32,000 nt of DNA from a virus. The notes beneath the pieces are model-generated. The model made no database searches, was not told where the DNA came from, and saw only the letters and a program-made list of their open reading frames with translations. The DNA lies in the IMG/VR virus record IMGVR_UViG_3300015608_001846, positions 30,001 to 62,000 of that record; one strand, written 5' to 3'. Below, in pieces: positions 5,554-29,217 of this stretch (position 1 is the stretch's first letter; each line of letters begins with the position of its first letter). Position numbers and translations under genes: made by a program.

Positions 5554-5999
5554 CGCTTGCCTCCGTTGACGACGATCCTACCCAGTGGGCGTTCCTGGCG
5601 GCGCATCTGACGGATCCGTTGCGGGTGATCGATCTTTTCATCGATCGTCCTCCGCCTCGACTCGACCATCACGATCCTGTCCATGAACTTATCAAACGAC
5701 GTCGACTCAGCCTGAGTAGCAGCCAGCTGATCTTCATGCTTTGCAACCTCACGCGCATGACAAGCCTGGCACAGGTTATTGTTTGGGCCGAACAGAATTG
5801 AACTTACGCCGTGACCGTGGGTCTCCGCGCCGCAGATGTCACAATTGTCGGTGGTCTCATCCTCGAACTCACCTAGGTCACTGTGTTCCCTGTGCCAGGC
5901 AACTGCCTCCGCCTGTTCATACGAGTGATCGAACCCACAGTCACCGCACGGTTCGTAGTCAGCGATCGGCTTTTCGTTGTTTTCTGTCTCTGTTTTCAT
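5550..5999 (-). CDS. Cys-rich (probable zinc-binding) hypothetical protein
   Basis: 149 aa, ATG 5999. Three Cys pairs (CGDCG, CDICG, CQACH) and a basic C-terminal tail. Confidence 0.6.
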   Translation of the reverse strand: MKTETENNEKPIADYEPCGDCGFDHSYEQAEAVAWHREHSDLGEFEDETTDNCDICGAETHGHGVSSILFGPNNNLCQACHAREVAKHEDQLAATQAESTSFDKFMDRIVMVESRRRTIDEKIDHPQRIRQMRRQERPLGRIVVNGGKR

Positions 6000-6103
6000 T
6001 GTGACATCTTTCTAATCGCTTCGACGGTTACCAACTGTGTCACATCTGTCAACTGTGACAGGATTATTCAAGGTTAATTATGGAACCACCGTTGACAAGC
6101 CAA
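6000..6103 (-). promoter_or_regulatory. intergenic region with TGTGACA/TGTCACA repeats and a hairpin; possible operator or promoter region
   Basis: This 104-nt gap is one of the few non-coding stretches. TGTGACA occurs at 6000..6006 and 6054..6060, and its complement TGTCACA at 6038..6044. A hairpin CTGTCA-ACTG-TGACAG spans 6046..6061. The minus strand reads TTGACA at the complement of 6047..6052, but I find no convincing -10. Confidence 0.25.
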
Positions 6104-6520
6104 TCAAGAGCGTTTTGTTCTGTTGAGGTGCAACGCAATCACACACATCTGGTCCCTGACATCGATTTCCTGGATCCTAGCAGCCTTTACTGTAAAGGGG
6201 CCGACCAGGTTGACGATGCGCGTCCCGTGATGGAGCTCAAAGCAGTCAAACGTCTGCTTGTCAGCCTGTACCAGGTCAAACGCATCTGACAGTTCAACAC
6301 GGAACTCGATCTCAGGTTCGATGTCAAACAACACCGTCCGAAGGATCCCTGTCATCGGGTTCAATTGCCCAGCCAAACGACGGGCAGCGACGACGGTGAC
6401 ATAGCGGTGAGCCAGGTCATCAACATCATCTGCGTTGTCGAGGTCTAGGACCTGGCCACGCAACGTATCACTCATCAAGATCCGTGAAGGGTCAGCTTTC
6501 ATCTCCATAACAGCTGACAC
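6104..6520 (-). CDS. hypothetical protein
   Basis: 138 aa from the track start GTG 6520; in-frame ATGs at 6508 and 6502. No family recognised. Confidence 0.6.
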   Translation of the reverse strand: MSAVMEMKADPSRILMSDTLRGQVLDLDNADDVDDLAHRYVTVVAARRLAGQLNPMTGILRTVLFDIEPEIEFRVELSDAFDLVQADKQTFDCFELHHGTRIVNLVGPFTVKAARIQEIDVRDQMCVIALHLNRTKRS

Positions 6521-6881
6521 TATAAACTACGTCTTTATAGAGGACATCTGCGAAGGTTGCGTAGTCCTTGTCGCTCTCAGTGACCTTCTGCAGTTCCTTC
6601 GTCGAGAGTTTCACTGTCACCCGGTCGTGGTCGATGGCGATGCGAGCGTGGTGTTGGGTATCACGTTCATATGCCAACAGTTCAGTGATGAACGTCTCCC
6701 TGTCGTTGATGCGACGAAATTGAAACGTTTTTGTCAACGACCCTTCGTCCTTTGCCCACCGATCTGTAGCAACGAGGGGCACCTCGGGTTGTTGCTGCGG
6801 AGTGATTGGCAGCCGGCCCAGGGCCATGGGACGTTGAGCATTCTTGATGAACGATTCGTGCAACGTTTTGAGGCTCTTCAT
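6492..6881 (-). CDS. pterin-4a-carbinolamine dehydratase (PCD/DCoH)-like protein
   Basis: 129 aa from ATG 6881 (GAGGG 5 nt upstream; track start is GTG 6893). RWAKDEGSLTKTFQFRRINDRETFITELLAYERDTQHHARIAIDHDRVTVKLSTKE follows the PCD pattern W..eg..l.k.F.F....f.......e...HHP.....y..v.v.LsT, with HHA in place of HHP. Confidence 0.6.
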   Translation of the reverse strand: MKSLKTLHESFIKNAQRPMALGRLPITPQQQPEVPLVATDRWAKDEGSLTKTFQFRRINDRETFITELLAYERDTQHHARIAIDHDRVTVKLSTKELQKVTESDKDYATFADVLYKDVVYSVSCYGDES

Positions 6882-6889
6882 CCTCACCC

Positions 6890-7642
6890 TCACAATACGA
6901 TACCGCCGACAACAGCGGCTTCGGTGAAGCTGGAACCATTTGTCCAGATCCTACGATCGCGGTCGATGATCGCAGAGCCGCCCTTCCACGTCAGGTCACG
7001 TTCCTTGCCAACGCGGTTGCTGACGATCAGGTTGGCTCGAGTCTCTTCTACGAGCTCAACCCAAGCTGCGTCGGGGTACGCGTACATCTCGCCCCAGTTG
7101 GTGCACAGTGCAATCGTGTCAACGCTGCCTCGTTTGTAGAAGCGATGACCGGGTCGGTAGAACTGGTACGACTCTCGGTAGCGGTTCATGGCGTCGCGGC
7201 AGACGAGGACGCCTAACCTGCCGGCGGCTGTCAACACGACGGGTGCCAGCTGTTCAGAAGGTTGGGCCCACAGGTTGTCAGCGCCGAACAGGTTGTGCTT
7301 TTGGGCGTTGGCCTCGAGGCCCCGGGGTCCGACGACTGCTGCGGAGTTATAGAGGTTGCCCTCAGTAAGCTCTACGTAACCAAAGACGACGTGGCTGTTG
7401 AACTGCCGTGCGATGGCAGCGAATGCTTGGGTCTGGTAACCATCGCGAGCCTGCGCGCAGGCTACCGCCTCGCGCGGCCCGTGCAGTGCATAGCCGCTAA
7501 GACACAGCTCAGGCAACACGACGACCCGAGCTCCCTTGGCACAGGCCTCAAACGTCAGTTGGAGCGCTGTTGCCATGTTCTGCTCGACCTCAAGCAGGTG
7601 AGGAGCGAACTGGACGGCGGCGACGATGGCGGGTTGTTGCAT
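6890..7642 (-). CDS. carbon-nitrogen hydrolase (nitrilase superfamily)
   Basis: 250 aa from ATG 7642 (TGATG overlap with the upstream stop; track start GTG 7645). The Glu-Lys-Cys triad sits in its usual contexts: VVVLPELCLSGY, AQKHNLFG, RLGVLVCRDAM. Confidence 0.8.
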   Translation of the reverse strand: MQQPAIVAAVQFAPHLLEVEQNMATALQLTFEACAKGARVVVLPELCLSGYALHGPREAVACAQARDGYQTQAFAAIARQFNSHVVFGYVELTEGNLYNSAAVVGPRGLEANAQKHNLFGADNLWAQPSEQLAPVVLTAAGRLGVLVCRDAMNRYRESYQFYRPGHRFYKRGSVDTIALCTNWGEMYAYPDAAWVELVEETRANLIVSNRVGKERDLTWKGGSAIIDRDRRIWTNGSSFTEAAVVGGIVL

Positions 7643-8739
7643 CACGACCTTTTGATCAAGCGCACTCGTTCACGCGAGCCCAGGCAAAGGTGACCGTCTG
7701 GACCCTTGTGTTCCTTGATCACCACCTTGTCAGTCGTCTTGACGACCCCGACGCTTTCTTTGCACAGACGACACTGTGCACGTCGACCCACTGATTCCGT
7801 GTGGGTTTTCTTGACGGGAGGGGTCGGCTGCCCAACGTCCATCTTCAGCGTCTCGCTATCACCATCAGCTTCACCCAACGGGTCCTCCAACTGTTGGTCG
7901 CTCTTGCGAGCTCGCTTGATGTGGGTATGCAGGAATTCACGGAAACCATCAAGGTCACGGACGATGTCCGGGTGGTCCTTCATCAATTGCACGTCAGCAG
8001 CTGTCAGCTCACCAGACTTGGACAGCAGCTTGATGTAGTCGTTCATCGCAGTCAACACCAGGATCTCGACCTCATCGGGATCCTCCAGTTGCATCTTACC
8101 GATCCACTGCGCCTTCAACAAGGCCTTGTCGACCGCCTGCTTGGCGCCGGCGACAGAAAATCCAAGCTCTTGAGCGATCTCCTCGAATGAGGAACCACCG
8201 ACGTCATTCATGTTACCGATGGCTGTTGACTTGTAGGCCCGGCCCTTCTTGGGCTCGTCGTCATCATCGTCATCATCCTCAATGCCACTCATGTCAGGTT
8301 CAATCCCGGAGTACGACATGTCTGATCGCAAGCCGATCTCGGCCAACGTCTTACGAATGGAACGGCGAATCGTCTCTTCGGTCACCGGCTTGTTGCTGTC
8401 TGCGATCTTCTTCATCTCGTCCTCTGCCTGTTGCGTTTCTGCTTTGTTCTCAATGTCATCAATGACGCCCTTGATGGCATCATACAGCTTCGGCACTCGT
8501 TCATTTGGAATGCCCTTGACCATGTTGCGAAACGTGACGTCGAGCTCTTGCTGCGTCTTCGGAACAAAGTCTGGATTGATTGGGTCAGTTTCATACGCCG
8601 ACGGGTCAACGACAGGATTTACATTGACGGGTTCTTCTTCGGGCACAGTGAGATCTCCCAAGTGACCACCGTCGAGCGCGCTTCGAACAAACTCACGCAA
8701 CGCGTTGTGACTGACGACGACACCTTTCATTGGTATCAC
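7642..8739 (-). CDS. hypothetical protein with sigma-70 region-4-like HTH, poly-Asp tract and C-terminal Cys/His cluster
   Basis: 365 aa from GTG 8739, or 362 aa from ATG 8730. SSFEEIAQELGFSVAGAKQAVDKALLKAQ resembles sigma region 4.2. The protein also has an EDDDDDDDEPKK tract and a C-terminal CRLCKESVG...HKGPDGHLC cluster. Confidence 0.45.
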   Translation of the reverse strand: MIPMKGVVVSHNALREFVRSALDGGHLGDLTVPEEEPVNVNPVVDPSAYETDPINPDFVPKTQQELDVTFRNMVKGIPNERVPKLYDAIKGVIDDIENKAETQQAEDEMKKIADSNKPVTEETIRRSIRKTLAEIGLRSDMSYSGIEPDMSGIEDDDDDDDEPKKGRAYKSTAIGNMNDVGGSSFEEIAQELGFSVAGAKQAVDKALLKAQWIGKMQLEDPDEVEILVLTAMNDYIKLLSKSGELTAADVQLMKDHPDIVRDLDGFREFLHTHIKRARKSDQQLEDPLGEADGDSETLKMDVGQPTPPVKKTHTESVGRRAQCRLCKESVGVVKTTDKVVIKEHKGPDGHLCLGSRERVRLIKRS

Positions 8740-10605: not shown

Positions 10606-11144
10606 ACTGCGGCACCGCTGGCGCCGCCCTCACCCGCGCGGTCTGCAGCGGGAGCTGGAAACTCTTCAGCGGCGACGTCTTCTTTGCTCTTGCCGATCTC
10701 TAGGCCGTGTGCCTGTCGCAGCACGTCGACAAATGCATCGACCACGTCAGGCTGGTACGACTTTGCCAAAAAGTTCTTGGCTCGGCGCATCAAGGTGTTC
10801 TTGATCTCGAGAAGGCTATCATAATTCTCGATCAACCTGACAACACCATTAACGAACGATTCCATGTCGATGGCGTCGGCAGCGAGCTTACCAGGTTCAG
10901 CAACGTCTTCTGCTTTATCCTCAGCGTCTGCTTCGTTGACGAGACGACGCGTCATCTGTCGAAAATCAAATCCTTCGTTCTTTGACGACTTTGCCTCGTT
11001 CTCAAAGTCAGCAAGGTATCGATCGACCTGTGAATCGAGCGAATCTTCTTCTTCGGGTGCTGGCTCAGTCGCATCAGCCTCGTGGACAAAGGCTTCAGCG
11101 ATCATTCTCCTCAGCTCTCCCAATGTGATCTTTGTCATCTTCAC
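10602..11144 (-). CDS. acidic hypothetical protein
   Basis: 180 aa from GTG 11144 (GTGA overlap), or ATG 11138. Acidic and Ala-rich. No family recognised. Confidence 0.6.
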   Translation of the reverse strand: MKMTKITLGELRRMIAEAFVHEADATEPAPEEEDSLDSQVDRYLADFENEAKSSKNEGFDFRQMTRRLVNEADAEDKAEDVAEPGKLAADAIDMESFVNGVVRLIENYDSLLEIKNTLMRRAKNFLAKSYQPDVVDAFVDVLRQAHGLEIGKSKEDVAAEEFPAPAADRAGEGGASGAAV

Positions 11145-11863
11145 TTGAGCACCTCATTGATCGATTCTGTGCGATTGAACCGCTCTTCGATCGTTGTCCA
11201 ATTGAACTCTCGCATTTGCGCGATGAGGTAACTCTTTTTGTCGCTCAGATAGTCACGGTAGTAAGCATGTTCATGCATGTCAACAACAATGACCGGGTAG
11301 ATGCCGACCATGACATCTTGGCTGTGATTGCTGACAAACGTGTTGACATACCTTTTCAGGAACATGTGGTAACCACATATGGCCCAGCCTTGTCCCGCAG
11401 ACAACGCACAAGCGATGAAATCCTTCTGAAAATCATCGAAGGTGCCGAAGTCACGCTCCAAGCGCAAGTATGCCATAGAATCCATGGTGATTTCACTGTG
11501 TGGGTCGAAGCAGTTGGCAAAGTACAGCTCATGCAGCCACACCGAGTTGATGTTGTACGTCTCATCGAGCTTCAGCGAACGAAAGTCGCTGTGCTGTGAA
11601 CTAGCATCCTGCCTCGAGGCCGAATCGAGCTGCGCAGAGACGTTATTCAGTGTTTGAACGTAACCCGTATAAAGCGTTCGGTGAGCGTCCTTGGTCTTTT
11701 GGCTAACCAGTTCAGACACCTGGCGATATGGCTTGGGCTCTGCAACGTAGGCTTCATTTAACCCGTCGTTGGGAAACAGGTCGGCTGGCAGCTTGACACT
11801 GTCACGTAGGATCTGATCGATGTCGATGGCCTTCAGCGAGTCAGCAAGCGGTTTCTTGTTCAT
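11141..11863 (-). CDS. Fe/Mn superoxide dismutase-like protein
   Basis: 240 aa from ATG 11863 (AAGGA 6 nt upstream; the track extends to 11938, overlapping the upstream ORF). SOD-family blocks: AHRTLYTGYVQTLNN (cf. H..KHH..YV..LN), SVWLHELYF (cf. WNH..FW), GQGWAICGY (cf. GSGW.WL) and VVDMHEHAYYRDY (cf. D.WEHAYY). The Asp and both C-terminal His ligands are present. Confidence 0.6.
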   Translation of the reverse strand: MNKKPLADSLKAIDIDQILRDSVKLPADLFPNDGLNEAYVAEPKPYRQVSELVSQKTKDAHRTLYTGYVQTLNNVSAQLDSASRQDASSQHSDFRSLKLDETYNINSVWLHELYFANCFDPHSEITMDSMAYLRLERDFGTFDDFQKDFIACALSAGQGWAICGYHMFLKRYVNTFVSNHSQDVMVGIYPVIVVDMHEHAYYRDYLSDKKSYLIAQMREFNWTTIEERFNRTESINEVLK

Positions 11864-11882
11864 CGTGCATCCTTTTACGACG

Positions 11883-12158
11883 TCAGTCGACTTCGTAGTC
11901 CTTCTCAAACTCTGCAGCGTCGACGAGGAACTGTTCACCTTCAGGTGTCTTCAGGATGACGTCGCGAGGCGAAACGCTGACGACAGTGTACCGGATTTGG
12001 CTGCGCTTGTGCCTGACCTTGAAATCTGGTGCGATGATTGGCTCATCCGTTACAGGTGAATCAAGCTTGACCTCCAAAGCCTCGCTGAGGCGTCTAACGC
12101 GAGCATCCCACTCTTCGCGCATCACTCGGATGACGTCTTGTTCTTCGAGCCTCTTCAT
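11883..12158 (-). CDS. hypothetical protein
   Basis: 91 aa, ATG 12158. No family recognised. Confidence 0.55.
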   Translation of the reverse strand: MKRLEEQDVIRVMREEWDARVRRLSEALEVKLDSPVTDEPIIAPDFKVRHKRSQIRYTVVSVSPRDVILKTPEGEQFLVDAAEFEKDYEVD

Positions 12159-12207: not shown

Positions 12208-12729
12208 TCAACCCTCCCAACTGGTGTAGAACCCTAGGGCCTCAGGGAGGCTCAACACCTCGACTCCGGCAGCACGTAATAGGTCACACCCCGACATGTC
12301 ACGATATGGACGATCGTAGACGACTCGAGTTAGTTGGGCGTTGATGCACAGCTTCGCACACAACCGGCAAGGCGCGTCAGTGACGTACATGTGTTTTTTC
12401 TTCCAAAAGTTGAAGTCGAGCTTCACCAGAGCGTTCTGTTCGGCGTGGATGAAACCTGACAGCCCGGGTTCGAGCGATTCAGGTTCATTGGGACCACCGC
12501 AATAGTTTCCATTGTATCCTACTGACAACACCTGTGTGTTGTCAGCAGAAACGACGATGGCTCCCACTTTCAACCGAGGATCGTACGATCGTTCGGCAAT
12601 GGTACGAGCGACGATCATCCATGTCTCGGGCCACGGTGGTCGTTCATAGTGACCACACCTGTCGCAGCGGCCATCGACAAACGTGTGATTCTGTCCAGTG
12701 ACGCACCAAGGCGCGCACCCGTAGCTCAT
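12208..12729 (-). CDS. dCMP deaminase (cytidine/deoxycytidylate deaminase family)
   Basis: 173 aa. WMIVARTIAERSYDPRLKVGAIVV, SVGYNG, zinc motifs HAEQNAL and PCRLCAKLC, and RVVY. There is an extra N-terminal Cys cluster (CAPWC...CDRCGH). Confidence 0.9.
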   Translation of the reverse strand: MSYGCAPWCVTGQNHTFVDGRCDRCGHYERPPWPETWMIVARTIAERSYDPRLKVGAIVVSADNTQVLSVGYNGNYCGGPNEPESLEPGLSGFIHAEQNALVKLDFNFWKKKHMYVTDAPCRLCAKLCINAQLTRVVYDRPYRDMSGCDLLRAAGVEVLSLPEALGFYTSWEG

Positions 12730-13277
12730 CAGATCCCCCTCGCTAGCTCGTGAAACCGAGCCAAGAATCGGTTCTCGGCATGCAACGGATCCCAGGGCAC
12801 GATGTTGAAGTCATAGGGTTCAAAGACGGCTGACATGCCCATCGTGCGGCCCCTGTCAATTCGCATGTCCCTAGCCTCAGTGACCGTCATACGATTGTCG
12901 ACCAATTTTACTGCGGTCGGCTCGCCTTGTGTGAGGCCGAACACGTCGCAGATCACGTTCATCAGGTGCGTCTCTGCCTCGCGGTAGAACGCAAACCCGG
13001 GATCACGCTTGACGGGTGACGGTACGTCAGTCAAGTACGCTTCTGAGGCATCGTGTAGCAGGCCCCACAACTGCAGTTCAGGCGGGCACATCATTGACAC
13101 CAACACCGAGTGCTGTGCCACCGAGTAGAACCTCATCAGGTGTCCCGCGAACCTCGCTGCGTTCGACAAGGCATGAGCGATGTCAACGATGCTGACTTCA
13201 TCCTGACGTGGGTCAAGCGGCCAGAACTTGAGTCCCGTGTACGTGGTGATGTAATCACCTCTGCGTTGCTCTTCCAT
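12729..13277 (-). CDS. HD-domain phosphohydrolase, YfbR-type 5'-deoxynucleotidase-like
   Basis: 182 aa. YSVAQHSVLVS and LLHDASEAYLTDVPSPVK closely match the E. coli YfbR block YHDASEVLTGDLPTPVK as I recall it. Confidence 0.7.
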   Translation of the reverse strand: MEEQRRGDYITTYTGLKFWPLDPRQDEVSIVDIAHALSNAARFAGHLMRFYSVAQHSVLVSMMCPPELQLWGLLHDASEAYLTDVPSPVKRDPGFAFYREAETHLMNVICDVFGLTQGEPTAVKLVDNRMTVTEARDMRIDRGRTMGMSAVFEPYDFNIVPWDPLHAENRFLARFHELARGI

Positions 13278-14412
13278 GCAATTGCTTGAATAGTAGGCTC
13301 TCTCGGCGAGCTAGTTCAAGACCAATTTCTTTGCCCACGAACCCCTCACCCACCAGGTCCTGACCTTTCACCGTCAGCTCATAGCTAGCAAATGACATCA
13401 ACATCGGGAACGATGGCAGGCCTCTGTTTCCCTGTGCATCGAACAGCTCCTCGTCAGTCACACGCAACCTGTTCTGACAACGCTTAAGTTCGAACGCTGC
13501 ATTGGTCGCATCCAGGCCTGCCAGGCCCTTGAAAAAGCACGTTCGATCGATCTCGTCAACGGTGTACTTCAAGTCGTGTAAGACCTGGCTTATCTTTTTT
13601 CGAGAATCATTAAGAATCACTGACAGGACGACAGGAACATTCGATGACTCAGGTCCAGCACTTGGCGCATGTGTGTCAGGGACGAGGCGGACATCGAGCC
13701 CCGGAAAGACCTGAGACCACATCTTGAAGCGTTCTAGAAGCGACAGATAGCAACGGCTCGACGACGAACCCGTGACGCCTTTGACAAACTCGTCATGGAT
13801 GCGTTCGGCAGCTAGTTCACTCAGGTCGTTGTCTGCTTCGATGGCACTCGCAGTCGCTGGATCGATGGAGAACCCAAAGCGAGCAGCGAACCGCAGGGCA
13901 CGCATGACACGCAATCGATCCTCACGGAAACGATCAACCGGAACGCCAACCGTTCTCACAACGTGATTCCGAAGGTCGGCCAGTCCTCCGACCAGATCTA
14001 CGACCTCATTCGTTGCAAGGTCGTAAAACAATGCATTGATCGTCAGGTCACGACGCTTGACATCTTCATCGATCGAGGTGAACGTGACATGCTCCGGTCG
14101 ACGACCCTCACCATGATCGATCCTGAAAGTCGCAATGTCGTACTCTGCGTTGGATCCAACCAACTTAACAACACCAAACGACTTACCGACAGCGGAGATC
14201 GAAAACCCATCTATGTCGTGGAGAAGTTCAATGACGTCCGTTGGGTGCAGGTTCGTCGCTAGGTCAATGTCATCGTGAGGCAAACGCATCAACGCGTCTC
14301 TGACAGCACCTCCGACGAGGTATAGCTTCGCACCTGCACGTTTGAAACGTGCAGCGATTCTATCGATGTCGCTAGATAACGAAATATCAAACCGCGTCCG
14401 TGAAGCCGACAT
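13255..14412 (-). CDS. tRNA nucleotidyltransferase (CCA-adding enzyme / poly(A) polymerase family)
   Basis: 385 aa from ATG 14412 (track start TTG 14418). Class II head-domain motifs: LYLVGGAVRDALM, DDIDLAT, ATFR, RRDLTINAL. No HD domain in this ORF. Confidence 0.85.
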   Translation of the reverse strand: MSASRTRFDISLSSDIDRIAARFKRAGAKLYLVGGAVRDALMRLPHDDIDLATNLHPTDVIELLHDIDGFSISAVGKSFGVVKLVGSNAEYDIATFRIDHGEGRRPEHVTFTSIDEDVKRRDLTINALFYDLATNEVVDLVGGLADLRNHVVRTVGVPVDRFREDRLRVMRALRFAARFGFSIDPATASAIEADNDLSELAAERIHDEFVKGVTGSSSSRCYLSLLERFKMWSQVFPGLDVRLVPDTHAPSAGPESSNVPVVLSVILNDSRKKISQVLHDLKYTVDEIDRTCFFKGLAGLDATNAAFELKRCQNRLRVTDEELFDAQGNRGLPSFPMLMSFASYELTVKGQDLVGEGFVGKEIGLELARRESLLFKQLHGRATQR

Positions 14413-14455
14413 GGACAAATGTTACCACCTTTGGGTGGCTTTTACATGTTGGTGT

Positions 14456-15034
14456 TCAGCCATCGATCCTCATCAAGGCTACTGGAGGAAAGTGCGCATG
14501 ACACCTAGGTTCATACATCTCATCGCCACCGATGCAAATCTCAGCCTGGTCATCATCGATCTGTTTCTTGTGAGTGTATCGAGCATCCTGCCCACAGACA
14601 GTGCAAACCGCAGTACACTTTTCCACGTGGGTTGCCCAAATTAGCAGCCTTTCAACCTCCTTAAAGGGCTTGCCTTGGGCAGAAACGTCTAACGTTGACA
14701 CGATGATGTCCTTGCCGCTGCGGTACAACCAGACCAAGACGTCAGCAACGTTATCGATCATGAATGCTTCATCGACTGCAACCACGTCAGGTTCACCATC
14801 GATGTTGGCTAGGGCTTCGATGATGTCAGGACCGGTACTGACAGTGATCGCGGGGACGCTCCACCCGCTGTGCGTAACGACGTCGCTGGTGCTGTAGCGC
14901 GTGTCGATCGCCGGCTTGAAGACGATCGCCTTTCGATGTTGGTGCTTGAAGCGCTCGAGATCCATCAACAACCTTGACGTTTTTGAGCTGAACATGCACC
15001 CGGTATACACCTTAAGGACTGGATTCATCTTCAT
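14456..15034 (-). CDS. tdk: thymidine kinase
   Basis: 192 aa. P-loop GCMFSSKTS, VVAVDEAFM, and the zinc-lasso Cys pairs CTAVCTVCG and ICIGGDEMYEPRC. Confidence 0.9.
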   Translation of the reverse strand: MKMNPVLKVYTGCMFSSKTSRLLMDLERFKHQHRKAIVFKPAIDTRYSTSDVVTHSGWSVPAITVSTGPDIIEALANIDGEPDVVAVDEAFMIDNVADVLVWLYRSGKDIIVSTLDVSAQGKPFKEVERLLIWATHVEKCTAVCTVCGQDARYTHKKQIDDDQAEICIGGDEMYEPRCHAHFPPVALMRIDG

Positions 15035-15067
15035 TGCCCGCTCCCGTGATTAACTATGTGTTTGCCA

Positions 15068-15631
15068 TCATGATGTAGTTTCTTCAAGCTCTAACTTCAA
15101 GATCGTGTAGGGCGGCTGCACGCCGGCACTAAAGTGAGATGCAGCATCGAGTGCCATCCTGATCCGTTCGAACGGGTCAAGGCACGTGTGTGTTGAATGC
15201 AACGAACCCAAAGCATAGCTCATCCCGCAGCCGATGGCTGCGTAGCCGTCCTTGTGTCGAGCGACCTGAAAATCTTCCTCAATGACAAAAAGCTCACCCC
15301 TATAGCCGAGCAAGAAACTGCCGCCTGATTCTTGCTCGTTTTCCTTCGTCAGGTAGCCTTTTTCATGGAAAAGGCCACGGACAGCATCGACGAAATCAGT
15401 CACCAGGTACGCCATCGAGTCTTTTCTCGATGGATGGTCAGGAACAGTCAACGCATAACGTAACAGCTGACCCATCCGGAACGACGAGGTGAAGCCCATC
15501 ATCATCTCATCGTTCATGAAGACCTTTTCGTCCAAACGAGACACGACATCAAGCGTGTCTGTGTCAATGGCGGCCGAGTCACCACCCATGTAAACGATGC
15601 CTTCGTGAACAAGACCGACGATGCAAGTCAC
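15068..15631 (-). CDS. proteasome-beta/HslV-like Ntn hydrolase, copy B
   Basis: 187 aa. The start is GTG 15631, 3 nt after the upstream stop. The N-terminus is M-TCIVGLV (Thr directly after the initiator). GGDSA gives Asp17 and DEKVF gives the Lys. Paralogous to copy A. Confidence 0.7.
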   Translation of the reverse strand: MTCIVGLVHEGIVYMGGDSAAIDTDTLDVVSRLDEKVFMNDEMMMGFTSSFRMGQLLRYALTVPDHPSRKDSMAYLVTDFVDAVRGLFHEKGYLTKENEQESGGSFLLGYRGELFVIEEDFQVARHKDGYAAIGCGMSYALGSLHSTHTCLDPFERIRMALDAASHFSAGVQPPYTILKLELEETTS

Positions 15632-15634
15632 AGG

Positions 15635-16177
15635 TCACTTTCCCTTCTTGACGCTGACGACACTGTAAGGAGGTCTGACTGTCGCATTGTTGCGGGTCGA
15701 TGCCTCGAGAGCATTGAAGAGGCGCTTCTTGGGATCACGTAAGGTTTCATTAGAATGCATGGCACCCAACGCAATGTCCGCGCCCGATCCAACGGCAGCA
15801 AACCTGTCAGAGGACGTAATGACCTGAAAGTTTCCCTGGATCCTGTACAATCCGCCGTTATAGCCCACGAGCACCTCACCAGAGAACTGGTCGCCTTCGA
15901 CACAACCACCGGCATCGAGAGCTGTCTTGAAGGCGTCAGCAAACGTTGACCCGATGAAACCACGGTCGTCAACGTCTTTCGGACGTTGTGGCAGCTCGAG
16001 TCGATACTTGATTGCGTCCATTACTTTTGGTGAACCACAGACGCCAAAGATGAACGACCCGACCTTAAAGACCTTCTTGTCACCGATGATGGTCTGCGCT
16101 CCAGAGCCTGACGTAGCTGCGCTGTCGCCTGCTAACCAAACAACGTTCCGATCAACCAATCCTACAATGCACGTCAT
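15635..16177 (-). CDS. proteasome-beta/HslV-like Ntn hydrolase, copy A
   Basis: 180 aa from ATG 16177 (GGAGG 5 nt upstream; track start TTG 16189). The N-terminus is M-TCIVGLV. AGDSA gives Asp17 and DKKVF gives Lys33. Other blocks: AAVGSG, ALGAMHS. Confidence 0.7.
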   Translation of the reverse strand: MTCIVGLVDRNVVWLAGDSAATSGSGAQTIIGDKKVFKVGSFIFGVCGSPKVMDAIKYRLELPQRPKDVDDRGFIGSTFADAFKTALDAGGCVEGDQFSGEVLVGYNGGLYRIQGNFQVITSSDRFAAVGSGADIALGAMHSNETLRDPKKRLFNALEASTRNNATVRPPYSVVSVKKGK

Positions 16178-16192
16178 CTGAACCTCCAAACT

Positions 16193-16852
16193 TCAATCTA
16201 CTAGGTGAAAGTGCCGTTCGTACAAGTGCAAGGATCCGGCGTGCCACAACATGTCTCCCAACGGGACCCCTAGCTCGTTGCCGAGCTGCTGGTGAACGTG
16301 GTCCTGCCACGCTTTGTCGTTTTTATAGCCAAAGACGACGTCGTTCGATCGCATCCTGACGCATGCGATCAGCTTGTCGTCACGGATGAAGTACTGTGCA
16401 GAGTCGGTGCAGATGAAGTCGCTCATGCCATCAACGTTGTAGTCACGCCAGATCGAAGGTCGAGTGTAGATCATCTCCGCACGTCGACTAGTCGGGTTGG
16501 CTCTTAACTCGTCGCGGACGTGCTCGTACTGCTTGCCGTTGGCCTCGCTCCAGATCAAGTAACCGTAGTTGGAATTGATGTTCCCTGCATGCGAAGAGCA
16601 CGCTCTCCACGCTGCGGGAGCTCCGCCCGGGATGTCATTGATGTTGAGTGATTGTGACTTGTACCACTCGATCTCTCGAGAGACATAGTCCTCGTTGACA
16701 GTGCCGAAGATCGAACGCTCGTCAGCGACGAACGTCGCTCCGATGATCTCGATCACCTTGCAACCCGTCTTGTCCTGGACAAATTCGCCGCGCGCTTTCA
16801 ATTCACCGAACTGCGCCCGGAGCTGAGCAACGTTCTGCATATGATAGATCAT
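16193..16852 (-). CDS. dCMP hydroxymethylase (thymidylate-synthase fold, T4 gene 42 type)
   Basis: 219 aa. Full-length resemblance to T4 gp42 as I recall it: DKTGCKVIEIIGATFVADE, EWYKSQSL, INSNYG, SRRAEMIYTRPS, DGMSDFICT (Cys148), MRSNDVVFGYKND (Asp179, where TS has the dUMP-selecting Asn) and GSLHLYERHFHLVD. Confidence 0.8.
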   Translation of the reverse strand: MIYHMQNVAQLRAQFGELKARGEFVQDKTGCKVIEIIGATFVADERSIFGTVNEDYVSREIEWYKSQSLNINDIPGGAPAAWRACSSHAGNINSNYGYLIWSEANGKQYEHVRDELRANPTSRRAEMIYTRPSIWRDYNVDGMSDFICTDSAQYFIRDDKLIACVRMRSNDVVFGYKNDKAWQDHVHQQLGNELGVPLGDMLWHAGSLHLYERHFHLVD

Positions 16853-16876
16853 CTTGTTTTTTCTCTCTTTTCTGTG

Positions 16877-17032
16877 TCAGCGGTGCTCGAGTTGTTCAAC
16901 ACGTGTCTCCAGGTTGTAGATCCGGATCTGATACGCACAATCCTTCATCAGTAGGATGATGATGCCTAAGGCAAGAGCGACCATGACAGTGTGATCACTG
17001 ACGTCGTTCGTTCGTTGCTGTGTCTTCTTCAC
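16877..17032 (-). CDS. candidate small membrane ORF (below track cutoff)
   Basis: This ORF fills an otherwise 180-nt gap. It gives 51 aa from GTG 17032 or 35 aa from ATG 16984: ..MVALALGIIILLMKDCAYQIRIYNLETRVEQLEHR, one hydrophobic span. There is no further support. Confidence 0.3.
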   Translation of the reverse strand: MKKTQQRTNDVSDHTVMVALALGIIILLMKDCAYQIRIYNLETRVEQLEHR

Positions 17033-17033
17033 G

Positions 17034-18005
17034 TCACACTCTCAGCTTCAGCGTTCGAAACAAAGGCTCGTTGATGGCCCACTCGATCGTACGTTCTAAG
17101 CCATCTGAGAAAGAGACCAGGGGCCTGTACCCAAGGACCTGTTCTGCACGAGACACATCAGCCAACGTATGCATAACGTCTCCAGCACGCCACGGGGTTG
17201 ATTCGACTGTCGCGGCCGGGAATCGTAGCCGTAGCCTGTCGATGATCTCATTGTTAGTCACGCTCTCACCACACGCAACGTTGAAGGGCGCGCCCTTCAA
17301 CTCACCGTCGAATGAACCAGCTCGGATGCATGCATCGACGACGTTATCAACGTAACACATGTCACGTGACTGCGTCCCATCTCCGTCGCTCCGCATCGGT
17401 CGACCGTCGACGATGGCCGACAACCATGCTGAGACAGCGGTGGCATAAGGCGATGATCCCAACTGGTTCGGACCAAAGACGTTGAAGAACCGAAGACACG
17501 CTGAATCTAGACCGTAGAGCTCACTGTACAGTTTGAGGTACTGTTCAATGATCAGCTTTTGCAACGCATAAGGTGACTTTGGTTGCAAGGTTGAGTCTTC
17601 GTGCGTCGCCTGTCCGGCTTCGACGCCGCCGTACACAGAACTAGACGATGCAAACACAAGCCGCTTGACGTTACTTACACACGCATCCATCAACTTTAAG
17701 GTCTTGCTAACGTTGGTCTCGTTCGTCTCTAGAGGATGCTCTACAGAGTAACTGACACGTGGCACTGCTGCCAGGTGAAAGACAACGTCGTACTGCTTGC
17801 GTTTGACAGCGTTCAGTACAGAATCAGACGCAAAGTCACACCAGTGTGCGACCGTGGACGCATCCGTCAAAAACTCCCAACGACCGTTGCTGAGGTCGTC
17901 ACAACCAAAGACCTCCCAATCATCCAGGGTCTGCAATCGGTTAAACAAGTTGCTACCGATGAACCCCGCAGCCCCTGTGACCAGCGCTCTACGCCTCTTA
18001 CGCAT
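17034..18005 (-). CDS. NAD-dependent nucleotide-sugar epimerase/dehydratase (extended SDR)
   Basis: 323 aa. Rossmann motif LVTGAAGFIGSNL, FASSSSVYG, catalytic YxxxK (SPYALQK), and RFFNVFGP. This is closest by eye to 4-epimerase-type enzymes. Confidence 0.8.
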   Translation of the reverse strand: MRKRRRALVTGAAGFIGSNLFNRLQTLDDWEVFGCDDLSNGRWEFLTDASTVAHWCDFASDSVLNAVKRKQYDVVFHLAAVPRVSYSVEHPLETNETNVSKTLKLMDACVSNVKRLVFASSSSVYGGVEAGQATHEDSTLQPKSPYALQKLIIEQYLKLYSELYGLDSACLRFFNVFGPNQLGSSPYATAVSAWLSAIVDGRPMRSDGDGTQSRDMCYVDNVVDACIRAGSFDGELKGAPFNVACGESVTNNEIIDRLRLRFPAATVESTPWRAGDVMHTLADVSRAEQVLGYRPLVSFSDGLERTIEWAINEPLFRTLKLRV

Positions 18006-22634: not shown

Positions 22635-23243
22635 TTACGCTGACAGCATCATAGACCGTTCAAGCTCAGTGTAACCCATGAATCGCAGGACCTCGTCGGT
22701 CTCCCGATCGAGGTCCTCATCGTCGACGTTCAACACCATCGATTCACACTTGGTGTAACCTTCAACGAAGTACATGTACGCCCTTGATAGCTGTGTCAAC
22801 CGTGTTGAGTCGAGATTGGGATCGATGTCATCAACGATCCCATCGTAGCTTGACCGGACGCAGAGGACGATCTGTGCGCCCAATTCTGCGTAAGCGTTGT
22901 CAGCTGCGGCGATGGCCACGTAATCAGTCTCACGCTGGAGGACTGACGAGTAGACGAGCTCACACGGATACCCACGATCAAAGATGATCGAGTACCCCGT
23001 CTGACGAAGCACGTCGGCGACCCTGGGATCAGCGTATCGTAGTTCATTAACGAACCTATCCTTTCTTGACAGGTAGGTCGATCGCTCTAAGGAGGCCTTA
23101 AAGTAAGGAATCCCCGTCAATCGTGACACGTTCTGTGCGATGTTGGTTTTTCCCGTCATGTCAGGGCCGACAAAAAAGGTGACACGTTGGACATCGAGCA
23201 CCCGACCCGTCCGTAGATCTAACAGACCACGCATGGACCCCAT
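22635..23243 (-). CDS. P-loop nucleoside/nucleotide kinase (thymidylate/deoxynucleoside kinase-like)
   Basis: 202 aa. Walker A FFVGPDMTGKT and an FDRGYPCELVYS block like the DR(Y/S) substrate motif of dNMP/dN kinases. It does not look like T4 gp1. Confidence 0.55.
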   Translation of the reverse strand: MGSMRGLLDLRTGRVLDVQRVTFFVGPDMTGKTNIAQNVSRLTGIPYFKASLERSTYLSRKDRFVNELRYADPRVADVLRQTGYSIIFDRGYPCELVYSSVLQRETDYVAIAAADNAYAELGAQIVLCVRSSYDGIVDDIDPNLDSTRLTQLSRAYMYFVEGYTKCESMVLNVDDEDLDRETDEVLRFMGYTELERSMMLSA

Positions 23244-25403: not shown

Positions 25404-26504
25404 TCACGTTATCTCCTTCACGCGCCACATCGTGGTCGAGAACCCGTAGTCGTTGCGGTCGACCTCGCCCAACACCAGCGCATATGCCGGGAATTCCCGG
25501 ATGCCGTCCCAACCCCACGCATTCATCCGGTACGTCCGACCCTCGGGTCCCTGCACCGTCAACAGGAGGTACTGCTTGCCGTTCTTTGTCTTCTTTGGTT
25601 TGGCCTCCATGATGACAAACCAGTAGATGTCGCGCTTGTCCCAGTCATCGACTGAACGAACGCCCTTCTCTAGGAGGCGATCGATGAGCTCAGGTTCGAC
25701 CATCGTCAACACGTCGAAGCTACCGAAAGCCTCGATCTTGTGCTCAGCAAGCTCCCGGCGCGTCCACTCTTCTTCAAACTCTTCAGCCAACGCACGAGCC
25801 AGCGCATAGAAGTTCTTGCGACCCTCGTGCGGGTCCTTCTTTGATGTCCGTTTGATGAGGGTCGCATGGTCACGGATGCGCTCGACGATCTCGTCGGAAC
25901 CCTTGCGCCTGGGTACCTCCTCGGTATAGGAACCCATCAACGTCTCATGCATGTGCCTGTACGACTTGAAGACCTTGTCAGGACCGACGCACCCTAGAGA
26001 GTCAAAGGCACGGATCTTGATGAGCACCTCGAGCGCCTTGCGGTTGAACTTCGACGGGCGCCAGCTGCCGTCCTCGTTCCACAGCACGTCCTCGATCGAG
26101 GCGTACGGGCGACTGGAGACGATCTCTTCGGCGGCTGTCTGTCCGATTCCCTTGCACGACAGCAGGCTGGGCATCAACCGCTTGCCGGGCAGCACTGTCC
26201 ACCCCAGTCCGGCCTCGTTGATGTCGATGGGTACGATGGTGTAACCTAGCTGCTTCACCTCGCTGAAGGCCTTCGCTTTCTTGTCGGGCGAGTTTGACAT
26301 AGATTCGATGTAGGCTGTGATCCACTGTTCCTCGTGGTACGTCATCAACCAGGCACACCAGAACGAATCGATTGCGTACGCCACTGCGTGGCTGTTCGAC
26401 GTCAACATGCCGTTGGCAAGGTAGAACTGGTGATCTGGATGCTCGACCTCGAGGTCGAACGTCTGGTGTTTACCTACCGGAGTGATTGACTTGATGTTTG
26501 TCAT
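25404..26504 (-). CDS. dnaE: split-intein C-half (b) fused to DNA polymerase III alpha C-terminal piece (fragment 4)
   Basis: 366 aa. It begins MTNIKSITPVGKHQTFDLEVEHPDHQFYLANGMLTSN, then SHAVAYAIDSFWCAWLMTYH (DnaE block KSHaaAYa...lk.hyP). Helix-hairpin-helix-like and OB-fold-like regions follow (KRDIYWFVIMEAKPKKTKNGKQYLLLTVQGPEG). ATGA overlap with the upstream ORF. Confidence 0.85.
   Translation of the reverse strand: MTNIKSITPVGKHQTFDLEVEHPDHQFYLANGMLTSNSHAVAYAIDSFWCAWLMTYHEEQWITAYIESMSNSPDKKAKAFSEVKQLGYTIVPIDINEAGLGWTVLPGKRLMPSLLSCKGIGQTAAEEIVSSRPYASIEDVLWNEDGSWRPSKFNRKALEVLIKIRAFDSLGCVGPDKVFKSYRHMHETLMGSYTEEVPRRKGSDEIVERIRDHATLIKRTSKKDPHEGRKNFYALARALAEEFEEEWTRRELAEHKIEAFGSFDVLTMVEPELIDRLLEKGVRSVDDWDKRDIYWFVIMEAKPKKTKNGKQYLLLTVQGPEGRTYRMNAWGWDGIREFPAYALVLGEVDRNDYGFSTTMWRVKEIT
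26394..26504 (-). mobile_element. split intein b, C-terminal half (37 aa)
   Basis: Blocks F/G: TFDLEVEHPDHQFYLANGMLTSN, followed by +1 Ser. The size and pattern resemble known IntC fragments. The penultimate residue is Ser rather than His. Confidence 0.75.
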
Positions 26505-26770
26505 TTCTTGACGTCTCTGACCAATGCCTCTAGCCTCTTGGATGCCCTGCGTCGTTGGGCCTTGTCACACTGTTCGTCACAGTAATCATCGGAGGGCTCG
26601 AGTTCAACAGCCACAGGAGGGCACCGCAACCTCATCGCGTGCTGCAGAAGCTCGATGGGCGACAGGCCCATCCTGGCAGAGATGTCATTCAGCGCTTCTT
26701 CAAACGAAGGTCGCTGCATAGGCCTCTCCGATTCGATGGACGCCCGGCTTTGGATCGCGCAGGTGTTCAA
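26501..26770 (-). CDS. small hypothetical protein inside intein-b gap
   Basis: 89 aa from the track start; ATG 26719 gives 72 aa (MQRPSFEEALNDISARMGLSPIELLQHAM...). Its stop overlaps the ATG of the IntC-b ORF. Confidence 0.45.
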   Translation of the reverse strand: MNTCAIQSRASIESERPMQRPSFEEALNDISARMGLSPIELLQHAMRLRCPPVAVELEPSDDYCDEQCDKAQRRRASKRLEALVRDVKK

Positions 26771-27737
26771 AGAGCTGTTTCAGGCACTCATCACTGAACT
26801 TGCCACCGTCCTTGTACGAAAACTGGTCGTAGGAGATGCGAATCAACGTCATTTCCTGCTTGACGACAGCTTCATCAAGTTCACGGTCGCGGACCCTCGC
26901 GTTATTTAGCGTTTCATCACCTTTGATGGGTTGGAAGTGGTACTTGCCATCGAACTCAATGATGATGTTCGTGTCCCAATTCGCCAAATCAACCTGCTTT
27001 CGTCGTGATTTAGACGTGATGCACACATCATGCAAGCGTTGATTCTGCTTAAACCCGGCATCGATGCTCATGACAACGTTTGCCAACACAAGCTCGGGCT
27101 TGCTGTGCCACGTTGAGTGCATCGCCTTCACGCACTTTTCATAGAAGACGTCAAAGTTTTCTGTTCGCCAACGCGCGAGGCGTTCAGCGCGGGCAGCCAT
27201 GATTTCCGGCCGTGCCGATGTTCTTTTTGCCGTGTTTCTTGACAGCTGACGTGCTGCTTCAGTCTTGTTATTTGCTGTCATCTGAGCAGATCGACGCGCG
27301 CGTTCTTTTGGATTTGCAAGGATTGCCGCGCTGACCGCTGCTCCCATCTTGGCTTTGTACTCTGTCAGATCATCGCCACGTTCTTTGGCGCGCCTGAGCC
27401 AGGCAAAATTCTGACCACGATTCTTGAATCGAACGCTTGACGTGTCGGACGTCAATTTTGCATCAGGGAATTGCATGACGTAAGTTTCTTTGCTAACGCC
27501 ATGCGTTTGTGTCAGGTGCTTACTGAGCGTCTTTGCTTTCAATCCACACAACCTACAGGTGACACGATCGTCACCTTCTTGCGAGACGCACCCTTCGATG
27601 TGTTTCTGGCACGACGTTTTGTACTTGAAGTTGCGGCCGCATCGTTCACAACGATGCTTAGGTTCCGTTTTTGTATCAACCACAGGGGCAACATCTCCCC
27701 CGTTTCCCTTGTTCGGAACTTGTGATCCCACGTGCAC
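26700..27737 (-). CDS. zinc-finger + Vsr-like nuclease, candidate homing endonuclease (intein b gap)
   Basis: Up to 345 aa. No ATG precedes the first finger; candidate starts are GTG 27737, 27731 or 27683. C2H2-like fingers: CERCGRNFKYKTSCQKHIEGC and CRLCGLKAKTLSKHLTQTH. The C-terminal VDLANWDTNIIIEFDGKYHF...RVRDRELDEAVVKQEMTLIRISY parallels E. coli Vsr PDIVFP..AIFVHGCFWHGH...RDRRD...GWRVLIVWE. Confidence 0.65.
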   Translation of the reverse strand: MHVGSQVPNKGNGGDVAPVVDTKTEPKHRCERCGRNFKYKTSCQKHIEGCVSQEGDDRVTCRLCGLKAKTLSKHLTQTHGVSKETYVMQFPDAKLTSDTSSVRFKNRGQNFAWLRRAKERGDDLTEYKAKMGAAVSAAILANPKERARRSAQMTANNKTEAARQLSRNTAKRTSARPEIMAARAERLARWRTENFDVFYEKCVKAMHSTWHSKPELVLANVVMSIDAGFKQNQRLHDVCITSKSRRKQVDLANWDTNIIIEFDGKYHFQPIKGDETLNNARVRDRELDEAVVKQEMTLIRISYDQFSYKDGGKFSDECLKQLFEHLRDPKPGVHRIGEAYAATFV

Positions 27738-27943
27738 TTTACTTTTTCTCCGGTGTTCAGCTCAACCTCAACCAGATCAAGAACACCATGATCGTGTTTC
27801 GATTTGACAGTGACGATTACGTTTTCACCTGTCTTTTCATCGCGCGTCATGACAAGATCGCCAGCTTCAACGTGCTGAAGCTGTTTGGTTGTGATGACTC
27901 TACCATCCAAATTATAAATATTCACTAGTTCTGAAAAGTGACA
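27539..27943 (-). mobile_element. split intein b, N-terminal half
   Basis: It starts at Cys codon 27941..27943: CHFSELVNIYNLDGRVITTKQL (block A) and TWDHKF (block B, TxxH). About 100 aa look intein-like. A ~30-aa basic tail then runs on to the stop while overlapping the endonuclease ORF in another frame. Confidence 0.75.
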
Positions 27944-28315
27944 GGACTTATTGAACCCATACCCAGCGAAGTAGAGTATCTTGTCGTACAGGTTGTTCGC
28001 GACTGCCTCGGTGTAACCGTTCTTGACGCACCCCTTGACGAAGCCATCACGGGTCTCCTGAGCTGCCTTCTTGGCAGCCTCACCGCCTGAGATGCTGCGC
28101 TTCATGATGGCGCGACGCACTTCGTCGCACTTGTCCTTCGGAAAGCCGGCGACCTTTTCAGCGAGTTCCATCACTTGCTCCTGAAATATTATACAGTTAT
28201 GCACGAGAAGGCCATTTGCGAAGAAGTTGTGGTTCTTCTTGATCTGGATGTCGTACACAAGCTGTGCAGGCGCGCGTTTGATTGCGCGAATCTTGACAGG
28301 AACTACGTCAGGCAT
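27539..28315 (-). CDS. dnaE: split-intein C-half (a) + DNA polymerase III alpha fragment 3 + split-intein N-half (b)
   Basis: 258 aa from ATG 28315 (ATGCCTGA overlap with the upstream stop; alternative ATG 28342, track start TTG 28345). It begins MPDVVPVKIRAIKRAPAQLVYDIQIKKNHNFFANGLLVHN. Then comes CIIFQEQVMELAEKVAGF..VRRAIMK..FAGYGFNKS (DnaE blocks YQEQVM, RRAMGKK, FAgYGFNKS). Then CHFSELVNIYNLDGRV...KCTWDHKF. Confidence 0.85.
   Translation of the reverse strand: MPDVVPVKIRAIKRAPAQLVYDIQIKKNHNFFANGLLVHNCIIFQEQVMELAEKVAGFPKDKCDEVRRAIMKRSISGGEAAKKAAQETRDGFVKGCVKNGYTEAVANNLYDKILYFAGYGFNKSCHFSELVNIYNLDGRVITTKQLQHVEAGDLVMTRDEKTGENVIVTVKSKHDHGVLDLVEVELNTGEKVKCTWDHKFRTRETGEMLPLWLIQKRNLSIVVNDAAATSSTKRRARNTSKGASRKKVTIVSPVGCVD
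28196..28315 (-). mobile_element. split intein a, C-terminal half (40 aa)
   Basis: LVYDIQIKKNHNFFANGLLVHN followed by +1 Cys (codon 28193..28195). Blocks F/G are canonical. Confidence 0.8.
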
Positions 28316-28790
28316 CGTCCACCTCGACAATATCGAACTCATCAAAACAACACACTTCTTGATCGAGCTTGCCGTCTTTCAACCCTTCGAAAAGACCTGA
28401 ACCAGTGCTACGATTGTAGAACATCGCATCATTGTCACGATAGTCGTCAATGAGTTTCACCTCAGTCCCAGCATCGAACCATTCATCGGGACGAGAAATG
28501 TATTTGACACGCTTAATTGGCTGGAGAGTTGCAGATGAAAAGAAGCCTTCAGCCCCATCACGCATCATCTTGACGTGAACAATTCTCTCGTTAAGATGAT
28601 CTGTTTGCAGGCGTTCACCCTCGTCAACTAGCCTGATCACATTGGGACATGCAGTCGTCTTCTCTATCCATAGTGGGTCAAGAGGCGACGGATGGTGTGG
28701 ACACGCACGCCAGTCGTGTTGACGTTGACGCTCGAGCAGGCAAAACACACCTGTCAAGTGCGTGTAACAAACAACGTAATCCCTCATCAT
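28308..28790 (-). CDS. hypothetical protein inside intein-a gap
   Basis: 160 aa. ATGA overlap with the upstream ORF, and its stop overlaps the IntC-a start. No family recognised. Confidence 0.55.
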   Translation of the reverse strand: MMRDYVVCYTHLTGVFCLLERQRQHDWRACPHHPSPLDPLWIEKTTACPNVIRLVDEGERLQTDHLNERIVHVKMMRDGAEGFFSSATLQPIKRVKYISRPDEWFDAGTEVKLIDDYRDNDAMFYNRSTGSGLFEGLKDGKLDQEVCCFDEFDIVEVDDA

Positions 28791-29215: not shown

Positions 29216-29217
29216 GT

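Follow-up and report, generated by a model that had tools for sequence, protein, structure and literature searches.

We identified two adjacent genes, A and B, that encode putative proteasome-like threonine peptidases within a 32,000-nucleotide stretch (the window) of the IMG/VR virus record IMGVR_UViG_3300015608_001846, positions 30,001 to 62,000. The record represents an uncultivated jumbo phage: the window is carried on a contig of 322,887 bp and the relatives found in IMG/VR measure 100-370 kb, in agreement with the phage-like character given to the region by an initial annotation that was made from the sequence alone. That annotation had described two adjacent paralogous open reading frames (ORFs) of 180 and 187 amino acids, and BLASTP bears this out, with 35% identity over 181 residues (E 6e-38). 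The shared motifs that it listed, namely KVF, LxGYxGxL, FQV, AAxGxG, ALGxxHS, DP and PPY, are all found in A and B; both proteins start with MTCIVGLV, and Asp17 and the catalytic lysine are kept in both, again as described. The features of the pair, in window coordinates, are the following.

16183 to 16187, minus strand: Shine-Dalgarno GGAGG, read from the sequence, with a 5-nt spacer to the ATG of gene A
15635 to 16177, minus strand: gene A, 180 amino acids, ATG start, predicted Thr1 peptidase of proteasome type, pI 9.0, from a rare subfamily that is mostly basic
16174-16172, 16126-16124 and 16075-16073, minus strand: codons of gene A for the putative catalytic Thr, Asp17 and Lys; GSG motif present
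15629 to 15647, minus strand: A/B junction, with a Shine-Dalgarno-like GAAGGGA inside the 3' end of A, the A stop TGA, CCT, and the B start GTG
15068 to 15631, minus strand: gene B, 187 amino acids, GTG start, predicted canonical AAH-like proteasome homologue, acidic, pI 4.8
15628-15626, 15580-15578 and 15526-15524, minus strand: codons of gene B for the putative catalytic Thr, Asp17 and Lys; GCG replaces GSG

The GTG of gene B lies 3 nt past the TGA of gene A and in the same frame, with a single CCT codon between them, a junction that suggests translational coupling of the two genes. The same-frame arrangement recurs at three related loci (L013, L020 and L022); as it is absent from most of the others, it is probably incidental. 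Two other start sites were considered and rejected. A TTG at 16189 is unlikely to be used as the start of gene A because it overlaps the Shine-Dalgarno GGAGG. For gene B, some gene callers place the start at Met15, giving 173 amino acids, on contigs with identical DNA. However, the N-terminus M/V/L-T-C-I-V-G is conserved in nearly all of 239 homologues, and this conservation, together with the identity of the DNA, indicates that the GTG start of B, and hence threonine at position 2, is correct.

Fold, family and catalytic residues

The AlphaFold (AF2) models of the two proteins, with pLDDT values of 96.6 for A and 95.9 for B, both have the alpha-beta-beta-alpha sandwich fold that is shared with proteasome subunits. 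In a Foldseek search of the PDB, model A retrieved BPH first (E 3e-12, TM ~0.8), HslV next (TM 0.7-0.77) and then 20S beta subunits, each at a Foldseek probability of 1.00 and together spanning TM 0.65-0.82, while model B matched phage proteasome-like proteins in BFVD. The comparison of profile hidden Markov models with the proteasome families, which the initial annotation had recommended, gave the same order: clade profiles matched BPH over its full length (E 5e-8 for B against 5ovu, and 5e-7), then HslV (3e-5) and 20S beta (2e-4). With single sequences, the matches to BPH had E values of 0.0015-0.009 at 17-22% identity. Both proteins also matched PHROG 1040, annotated as 'peptidase HslV family' (E 4.5e-24 for A and 4.3e-22 for B), and neither matched a PADLOC defence model.

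With the initiator residue counted, neither clade varies at Thr2, at Asp18 or at the lysine (Lys35 in A, Lys36 in B), and the A clade does not vary at Gly48 either; all 21 A-type and all 15 partner B-type sequences retain the threonine and the aspartate. The initial annotation had proposed an exposed Thr1 and the lack of a propeptide. The fold and the profile matches uphold proteasome-like Ntn hydrolases; that Thr1 is exposed through removal of the methionine is what we infer. In this scheme host deformylase and methionine aminopeptidase would take off the initiator methionine, and the exposed Thr1 would act with Asp17 and the conserved lysine as in the proteasome. Judged from sequence and models, A and B are probably threonine peptidases of proteasome type that belong to the group-I (BPH/AAH-like) branch, catalytically competent and free of a propeptide; we hold this with moderate confidence, jointly with the view developed below that they are separate, co-expressed and non-redundant peptidases.

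Divergence, distribution and pairing of A and B

The two proteins differ at several sites and in charge.

Ser129 position of the proteasome: G-S-G in A, G-C-G in B
Gly47 position of the proteasome (by-eye alignment): C-G-S in A, T-S-S in B
Loop after helix 2, the pore-loop site: shorter in the window protein and variable in A; an extra hairpin in B, conserved and acidic, KG..KENExE
Isoelectric point in the window: 9.0 in A, 4.8 in B
Mean net charge when paired: +3.3 for A, -9.1 for B

The single-copy viral and bacterial homologues have a mean net charge of about -2.7. Compared with 53 viral genes that occur as single copies, B is more acidic and A more basic when the two are paired (Mann-Whitney p ~1e-6, a value that is descriptive only because of shared ancestry). 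The charge pattern may, however, be older than the pairing: A genes that lack a partner are also basic, the B gene that stands alone is acidic, and L023, a sister group with single copies, is basic.

The family is large, with at least 8,283 representatives in an exhaustive profile search, and clearly A-type members make up 9 of the top 150. The homologues detected for B number 5,925, compared with 250 for A; about 100 of the latter fall into a clade of their own, 42-58% identical to A. A family homologue occurs in 205 phage records, and in the 50,697 deposited phage genomes there was no A-type gene and no genome with two family copies. A megablast search of window positions 14000-18000 against the same 50,697 genomes gave no match; no close relative of the phage is in culture. 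Gene B is 45-57% identical to bacterial copies, and a scan of GTDB with a B-only alignment found 80 bacterial loci, all of them single-copy. These bacterial relatives of B are mainly from Actinobacteria (Frankia, Actinoplanes, Streptomyces) and alpha-proteobacteria (Bradyrhizobium, Mesorhizobium), with others in Firmicutes, Chloroflexota and Bacteroidota; the sampled Firmicutes copies and several of the proteobacterial ones are located in prophages.

Several variants of the family gene were seen along the way. BFVD includes phage versions with 219-388 amino acids, and the homologue of Vibrio phage VPMCC14 (L172 3501-4463) is annotated as a 320-residue 'nucleophile aminohydrolase' that joins a proteasome-like domain to a C-terminal extension of about 140 residues. 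An independent and younger B-B tandem, 65% identical and with both members basic (pI 9.1 and 9.5), is present in another large phage, on the IMG/VR contigs L026 (301 kb; 5983-7361) and L031 (121 kb). Together with L015, described below, these cases show that multiplication of the family gene recurs in very large phages.

The initial annotation had called A and B a duplicated pair. They are indeed paralogues, but the term misleads, and a recent tandem duplication can be rejected: A is equally distant from every B-type sequence, at about 32% identity whether it is compared with its partner, with B-types of other phages or with bacterial copies, and same-locus and cross-locus comparisons give the same value (0.32). 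Therefore, A is best regarded as an old, separate subfamily. The A clade is monophyletic, and within the lineage A is better conserved than B (0.56 against 0.49). What is new here is this asymmetry, in which B is canonical and A belongs to a tiny, mostly basic subfamily that is equally distant from every B. By their sequences, the two genes are non-redundant, B being an ordinary acidic member of the family and A an old, rare and mostly basic offshoot that is kept beside it.

Gene B lies directly downstream of A in 14 of the 20 IMG/VR loci in which the A-type gene is not cut by a contig end, and A stands alone, within about 6 kb, in another five; in L015 (324 kb) the order is B-A, with a third, divergent B-type copy 2 kb away. 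Among 14 distinct related loci, all but one have an A/B junction of -4 to +10 nt. The pair is embedded in a longer block, which runs from a 430-residue protein gene of unknown function through an epimerase, a ThyA-like gene, A, B, thymidine kinase (TK), a CCA-adding enzyme and dCMP deaminase to superoxide dismutase (SOD), and relatives share the whole block in synteny, with proteins 40-70% identical, on contigs that measure 100-370 kb. Some syntenic relatives have A only (L011, L029/30) and one has B only (L076), while L017 and L019 carry an A-type gene alone on unrelated contigs. In a rooted tree the state with both genes is basal and the A-only loci are nested inside it, which indicates that B was lost secondarily.

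The conservation of the pair bears on the proposal, made in the initial annotation, that the two products form a hetero-oligomer. In this case A and B would co-assemble in a fixed stoichiometry, in mixed rings or with an A ring placed on a B ring, and the particle would have two kinds of active site. The A-to-B order with its short junctions in 13 of the 14 distinct loci, the survival of the pair through 45-55% sequence divergence and the retention of catalytic residues in both proteins all argue for co-assembly. In addition, the lineage as a whole combines a basic A with a strongly acidic B, beyond what is seen in single-copy viral genes, and opposite charge is consistent with an association of A with B. 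However, tight junctions and a fixed order are properties of the whole gene block and are not specific to the pair; the charge of unpaired A and of the sister group L023 may predate the pairing, as noted above; and the solved group-I relative BPH is homo-oligomeric, as is HslV. Relatives that lack B or lack A, together with the lone A genes on unrelated contigs, also count against a fixed complex, and they imply that A and B can each probably assemble alone. Because such relatives exist and the evidence for co-assembly is circumstantial, we regard a regular hetero-oligomer as a tentative possibility and prefer the reading of A and B as separate enzymes.

Gene context and possible function

The pair is flanked at close range by two genes of nucleotide metabolism, both of them syntenic in the relatives.

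16193 to 16852, minus strand: thymidylate-synthase-like gene, 219 amino acids, 15 nt upstream of A (PF00303 E 5.8e-15; phrog_160 E 6.7e-49)
14456 to 15034, minus strand: thymidine kinase, 33 nt downstream of B (PF00265 E 2e-39)

A and B thus sit within a module of nucleotide metabolism and replication, comprising the ThyA-like gene, TK, dCMP deaminase and the DNA polymerase III alpha subunit (Pol III alpha), and not with capsid genes. Single-copy homologues in unrelated phages have similar company: Nrd, DHFR and ThyA in the T5-like Salmonella phage S133; dCMP deaminase, NAMPT and MazG in Xoo-sp13; dCMP deaminase, Sir2 and Nudix in an E. coli jumbo phage; MazG and NMNAT in an Ochrobactrum phage; and NT5C and dUTPase in a Bacteroidota metagenome-assembled genome (MAG). 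No capsid gene adjoins the homologue in any of them. Maturation proteases are common in phages, and the initial annotation had listed the processing of virion proteins among its options, so that a virion or prohead maturation protease, or an enzyme that processes structural proteins, has to be weighed. In Paenibacillus and Pelosinus prophages the homologue adjoins the large terminase, and the family is therefore not everywhere far from late genes. Nevertheless, the pair itself lies in the nucleotide-metabolism and replication block, the homologues of T5-like and other phages lie in metabolic modules distant from capsid genes, and the known prohead proteases have other folds (herpesvirus-type S80/U9/U35, or ClpP-like). 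A role in virion maturation is unlikely, indeed highly so.

An ATPase partner was sought across the locus. There was no AAA+ domain among the 30 largest ORFs of the window (Pfam), no AAA+-type Walker A motif in the window, and no AAA+ domain by Pfam label among the genes called at contig positions 242.8-293.6 kb; the observation in the initial annotation that no AAA+ or HslU-like gene is in view thus holds for the window and extends to 51 kb of the contig. Likewise, no AAA+ unfoldase neighbour was present in the five cultured-phage contexts that we inspected or in the sampled prophage and bacterial contexts, where the neighbours of bacterial homologues were covered by a Pfam scan of ten chosen neighbours. 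A PhoH-like ATPase was seen a few kb from the single-copy homologue in S133 (L085 462-1214), E. coli jumbo phage E9.1 (L171 6316-7474) and Vibrio phage VPMCC14 (L172 1251-2036); its proximity may reflect only a shared metabolic module.

These results bear on the idea of an HslV-like protease that depends on an unfoldase, whose rings would dock on a host HslU- or ClpX-like ATPase or on a phage ATPase elsewhere in the genome. The fold resembles that of HslV, databases often label relatives 'HslVU peptidase subunit', and the ATPase inspection spanned 51 of 323 kb. On the other hand, the scores against the HslV models lie far below their cutoffs, the nearest relative BPH has no unfoldase partner, and the cultured-phage, prophage and bacterial contexts held no AAA+ unfoldase. 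We consider dependence on an unfoldase very unlikely.

The reading that we prefer, at about an even chance, is that A and B are separate but co-expressed and non-redundant peptidases. They are probably expressed together with their neighbours in the nucleotide-metabolism block (ThyA-like, A, B, TK). Given the fold, each protein would probably assemble into a stacked ring like that of BPH and HslV, with the active sites inside, and the ring would work without an ATPase of its own on peptides or unfolded polypeptides. It is conceivable, at low confidence, that they serve proteolysis in early or middle infection, perhaps in peptide salvage or in the removal of particular host proteins. Our literature search found no functional study of any phage proteasome- or HslV-like homologue.

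Several findings weigh against this reading. The Pfam Proteasome model PF00227 gave 16.0 bits for A and 12.8 bits for B, below its cutoff of 22.4. The NCBIfam models for HslV (TIGR03692, 11.7 bits against 157.75; NF003964, 12.0 against 137) and for 20S beta (TIGR03690, 12.6 against 191.9; TIGR03634, 16.6 against 224) were also below their cutoffs, and the HslV-like identity given in the initial annotation has to be replaced accordingly: the proteins are not HslV proper, and BPH is the nearest solved relative. Gene B has serine instead of glycine at the position of the oxyanion-hole Gly47, in a by-eye alignment, and cysteine in place of Ser129. A promoter and terminator scan around the pair gave a site count no higher than in shuffled sequence, the operon being drawn from spacing only. 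The search for an ATPase covered 51 kb of a 323-kb genome, and the terms 'A-only' and 'B-only' describe the neighbourhood out to about 6 kb from the gene, so that a partner could sit elsewhere in the genome. Finally, a mixed particle accounts for the opposite charges and tight junctions no less well than separate particles do.

The substitutions in B also touch on a non-protease function, that is, some other chemistry on the proteasome fold (a connectase-type ligase or an amidase), or one copy serving as a non-catalytic scaffold. The proteasome-like family does include the ligase connectase, B departs from the canonical Gly47 and Ser129, and no activity is known for any AAH-type protein. However, the full Thr/Asp/Lys triad is present in both proteins, the S3/S4 helical insertion that defines connectase is missing from both models, and the closest relative, BPH, binds epoxomicin in the classical manner (PMC5777263). 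We consider such a function very improbable.

The locus is a defined and conserved two-gene system, in which a canonical family member is kept with a rare, oppositely charged sister, both of them apparently active, with no unfoldase in view. A proteasome-like particle that is built from two kinds of subunit and needs no ATPase is a somewhat doubtful proposal; in one possible form a basic A ring would lie on an acidic B ring, and both rings would have active sites of their own. If A and B do co-assemble, this would apparently be the first virus-encoded heteromeric proteasome-like complex to be described, and its subunit heterogeneity would have arisen independently of the archaeal and eukaryotic proteasome and been kept by a lineage of uncultivated phages of 100-370 kb. 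It would also show how a homomeric ring protease becomes heteromeric, the step behind alpha/beta and multi-beta proteasomes, in a small and tractable model. Even if A and B act separately, both are small, their models are confident, and standard proteasome inhibitors target active sites of this type. In either case the pair is a good entry point to the question of why so many large phages carry such ATP-independent peptidases in nucleotide and NAD metabolism modules.

The surrounding genome has other features of its own. The Pol III alpha gene is split into several pieces at window positions 25404-31963 (minus strand), continuing in L168; between the pieces lie intein-splicing domains and NUMOD and GIY-YIG homing endonucleases, and an ORF among them (29218-30048) encodes zinc fingers of the C2H2 type (zf-C2H2 in Pfam, E 1.4e-11), which are unexpected in a phage. 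The 219-residue thymidylate-synthase-like gene occurs together with TK, a dNMP phosphatase, dCMP deaminase and a thymidylate-kinase-like gene, and near this set are two NAD-epimerases, a phosphomannomutase and an 892-residue ORF with a cytidylyltransferase-like N-terminus. In tblastn the 892-residue ORF reached 30% identity at most, over its N-terminal half.

834-3512, 12729-13277, 16193-16852, 17034-18005 and 22635-23243 of the window: genes of the nucleotide and sugar set, with others in L167 and L168

The gene content points to a possible pathway by which pyrimidines of the phage DNA would be hypermodified or glycosylated. In addition, a CCA-adding enzyme (window 13255-14418) together with Thg1 (tRNA-His guanylyltransferase) and an RNA ligase just outside the window (L167 18954-19724 and 20601-21626) looks like a tRNA repair set; ARAGORN found no tRNA genes in the window. 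The phage also encodes an Fe/Mn superoxide dismutase, a carbon-nitrogen hydrolase and a pterin-4a-carbinolamine dehydratase (window 11141-11938 and 6890-7645; L001 19297-19686), and the SOD is 62-71% identical across the syntenic lineage.

Comparison with known proteasome-like systems

HslV (ClpQ) is a homo-dodecamer that needs HslU. A and B share its fold (TM 0.7-0.77) and its Thr1/Lys33-type active site, and PHROG and many other databases label their relatives 'peptidase HslV family'. Nevertheless, they fall well short of the HslV models (11.7-12 bits against 137-158), and no HslU is encoded alongside, either in the window or over the 51 kb of contig that was inspected. With 20S beta subunits they share the Thr1/Asp17/Lys33 triad at proteasome-like spacing, but they have no alpha-subunit gene, no propeptide and no C-terminal helix 5, and their scores against the 20S models are equally low (12.6-16.6 bits against 192-224). 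Some archaeal and actinobacterial proteasomes have two beta paralogues, and paralogous subunits then occur in one particle.

BPH, the Betaproteobacteria proteasome homologue (PDB 5OVS, 5OVT, 5OVU), is the best match of A and B both by structure and by sequence profile. It shares with them the T-C N-terminus and the lack of a propeptide and of an unfoldase partner, and the acidic loop of B stands at its pore-loop position. At only 17-22% identity, A and B belong to a related family and not to the BPH cluster. In bacteria, BPH forms a homo-tetradecameric double ring with an acidic cavity; it is the product of one gene, located in stress-regulated operons, and has no unfoldase partner (PMC5777263), whereas here there are two different phage genes, known from sequence and predicted models. 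The missing ATPase partner is usual among BPH-like homologues (PMC5777263) and no peculiarity of the A/B locus.

The group-I proteasome homologues PPH, AAH and CPH radiate from BPH, are all present in phages and all lack propeptides, as do the homologues other than 20S beta and HslV in general (Fuchs, Alva, Lupas 2021, PMC8665760). PPH is likewise phage-borne; it has about 140 residues and lacks helix 2 (PMC8665760). Since A and B have 180 and 187 residues and both models contain helix H2 (71-89 in A, 72-90 in B), a PPH identity was excluded.

AAH, the family that they resemble most, is most abundant in Actinobacteria, occurs also in alpha-proteobacteria, is phage-borne in Firmicutes and Bacteroidetes, and is found in many phages (PMC8665760). 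The models of A and B have the same compact architecture of about 180 residues, with helices H1-H4 and without a propeptide, insertions or S12/H5. Like the A/B family, AAH is linked to BPH and occurs in many phages and prophages. The distribution of B agrees with that of AAH, while the A-type was seen on no contigs other than those of uncultivated phages. From architecture, and from the distribution of B set beside the published description (PMC8665760), an AAH-like group appears to be the best fit for both proteins. The same paper treats AAH as single genes and makes no mention of pairs (its text has no 'paralog' and one unrelated 'hetero'); here a canonical B adjoins a rare and mostly basic A. 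Phage proteasome homologues were thus already known from the 2021 catalogue, and as far as we could find, the conserved association between a canonical AAH-like gene and one from a rare basic sister subfamily, maintained in a lineage of large phages, is apparently undescribed.

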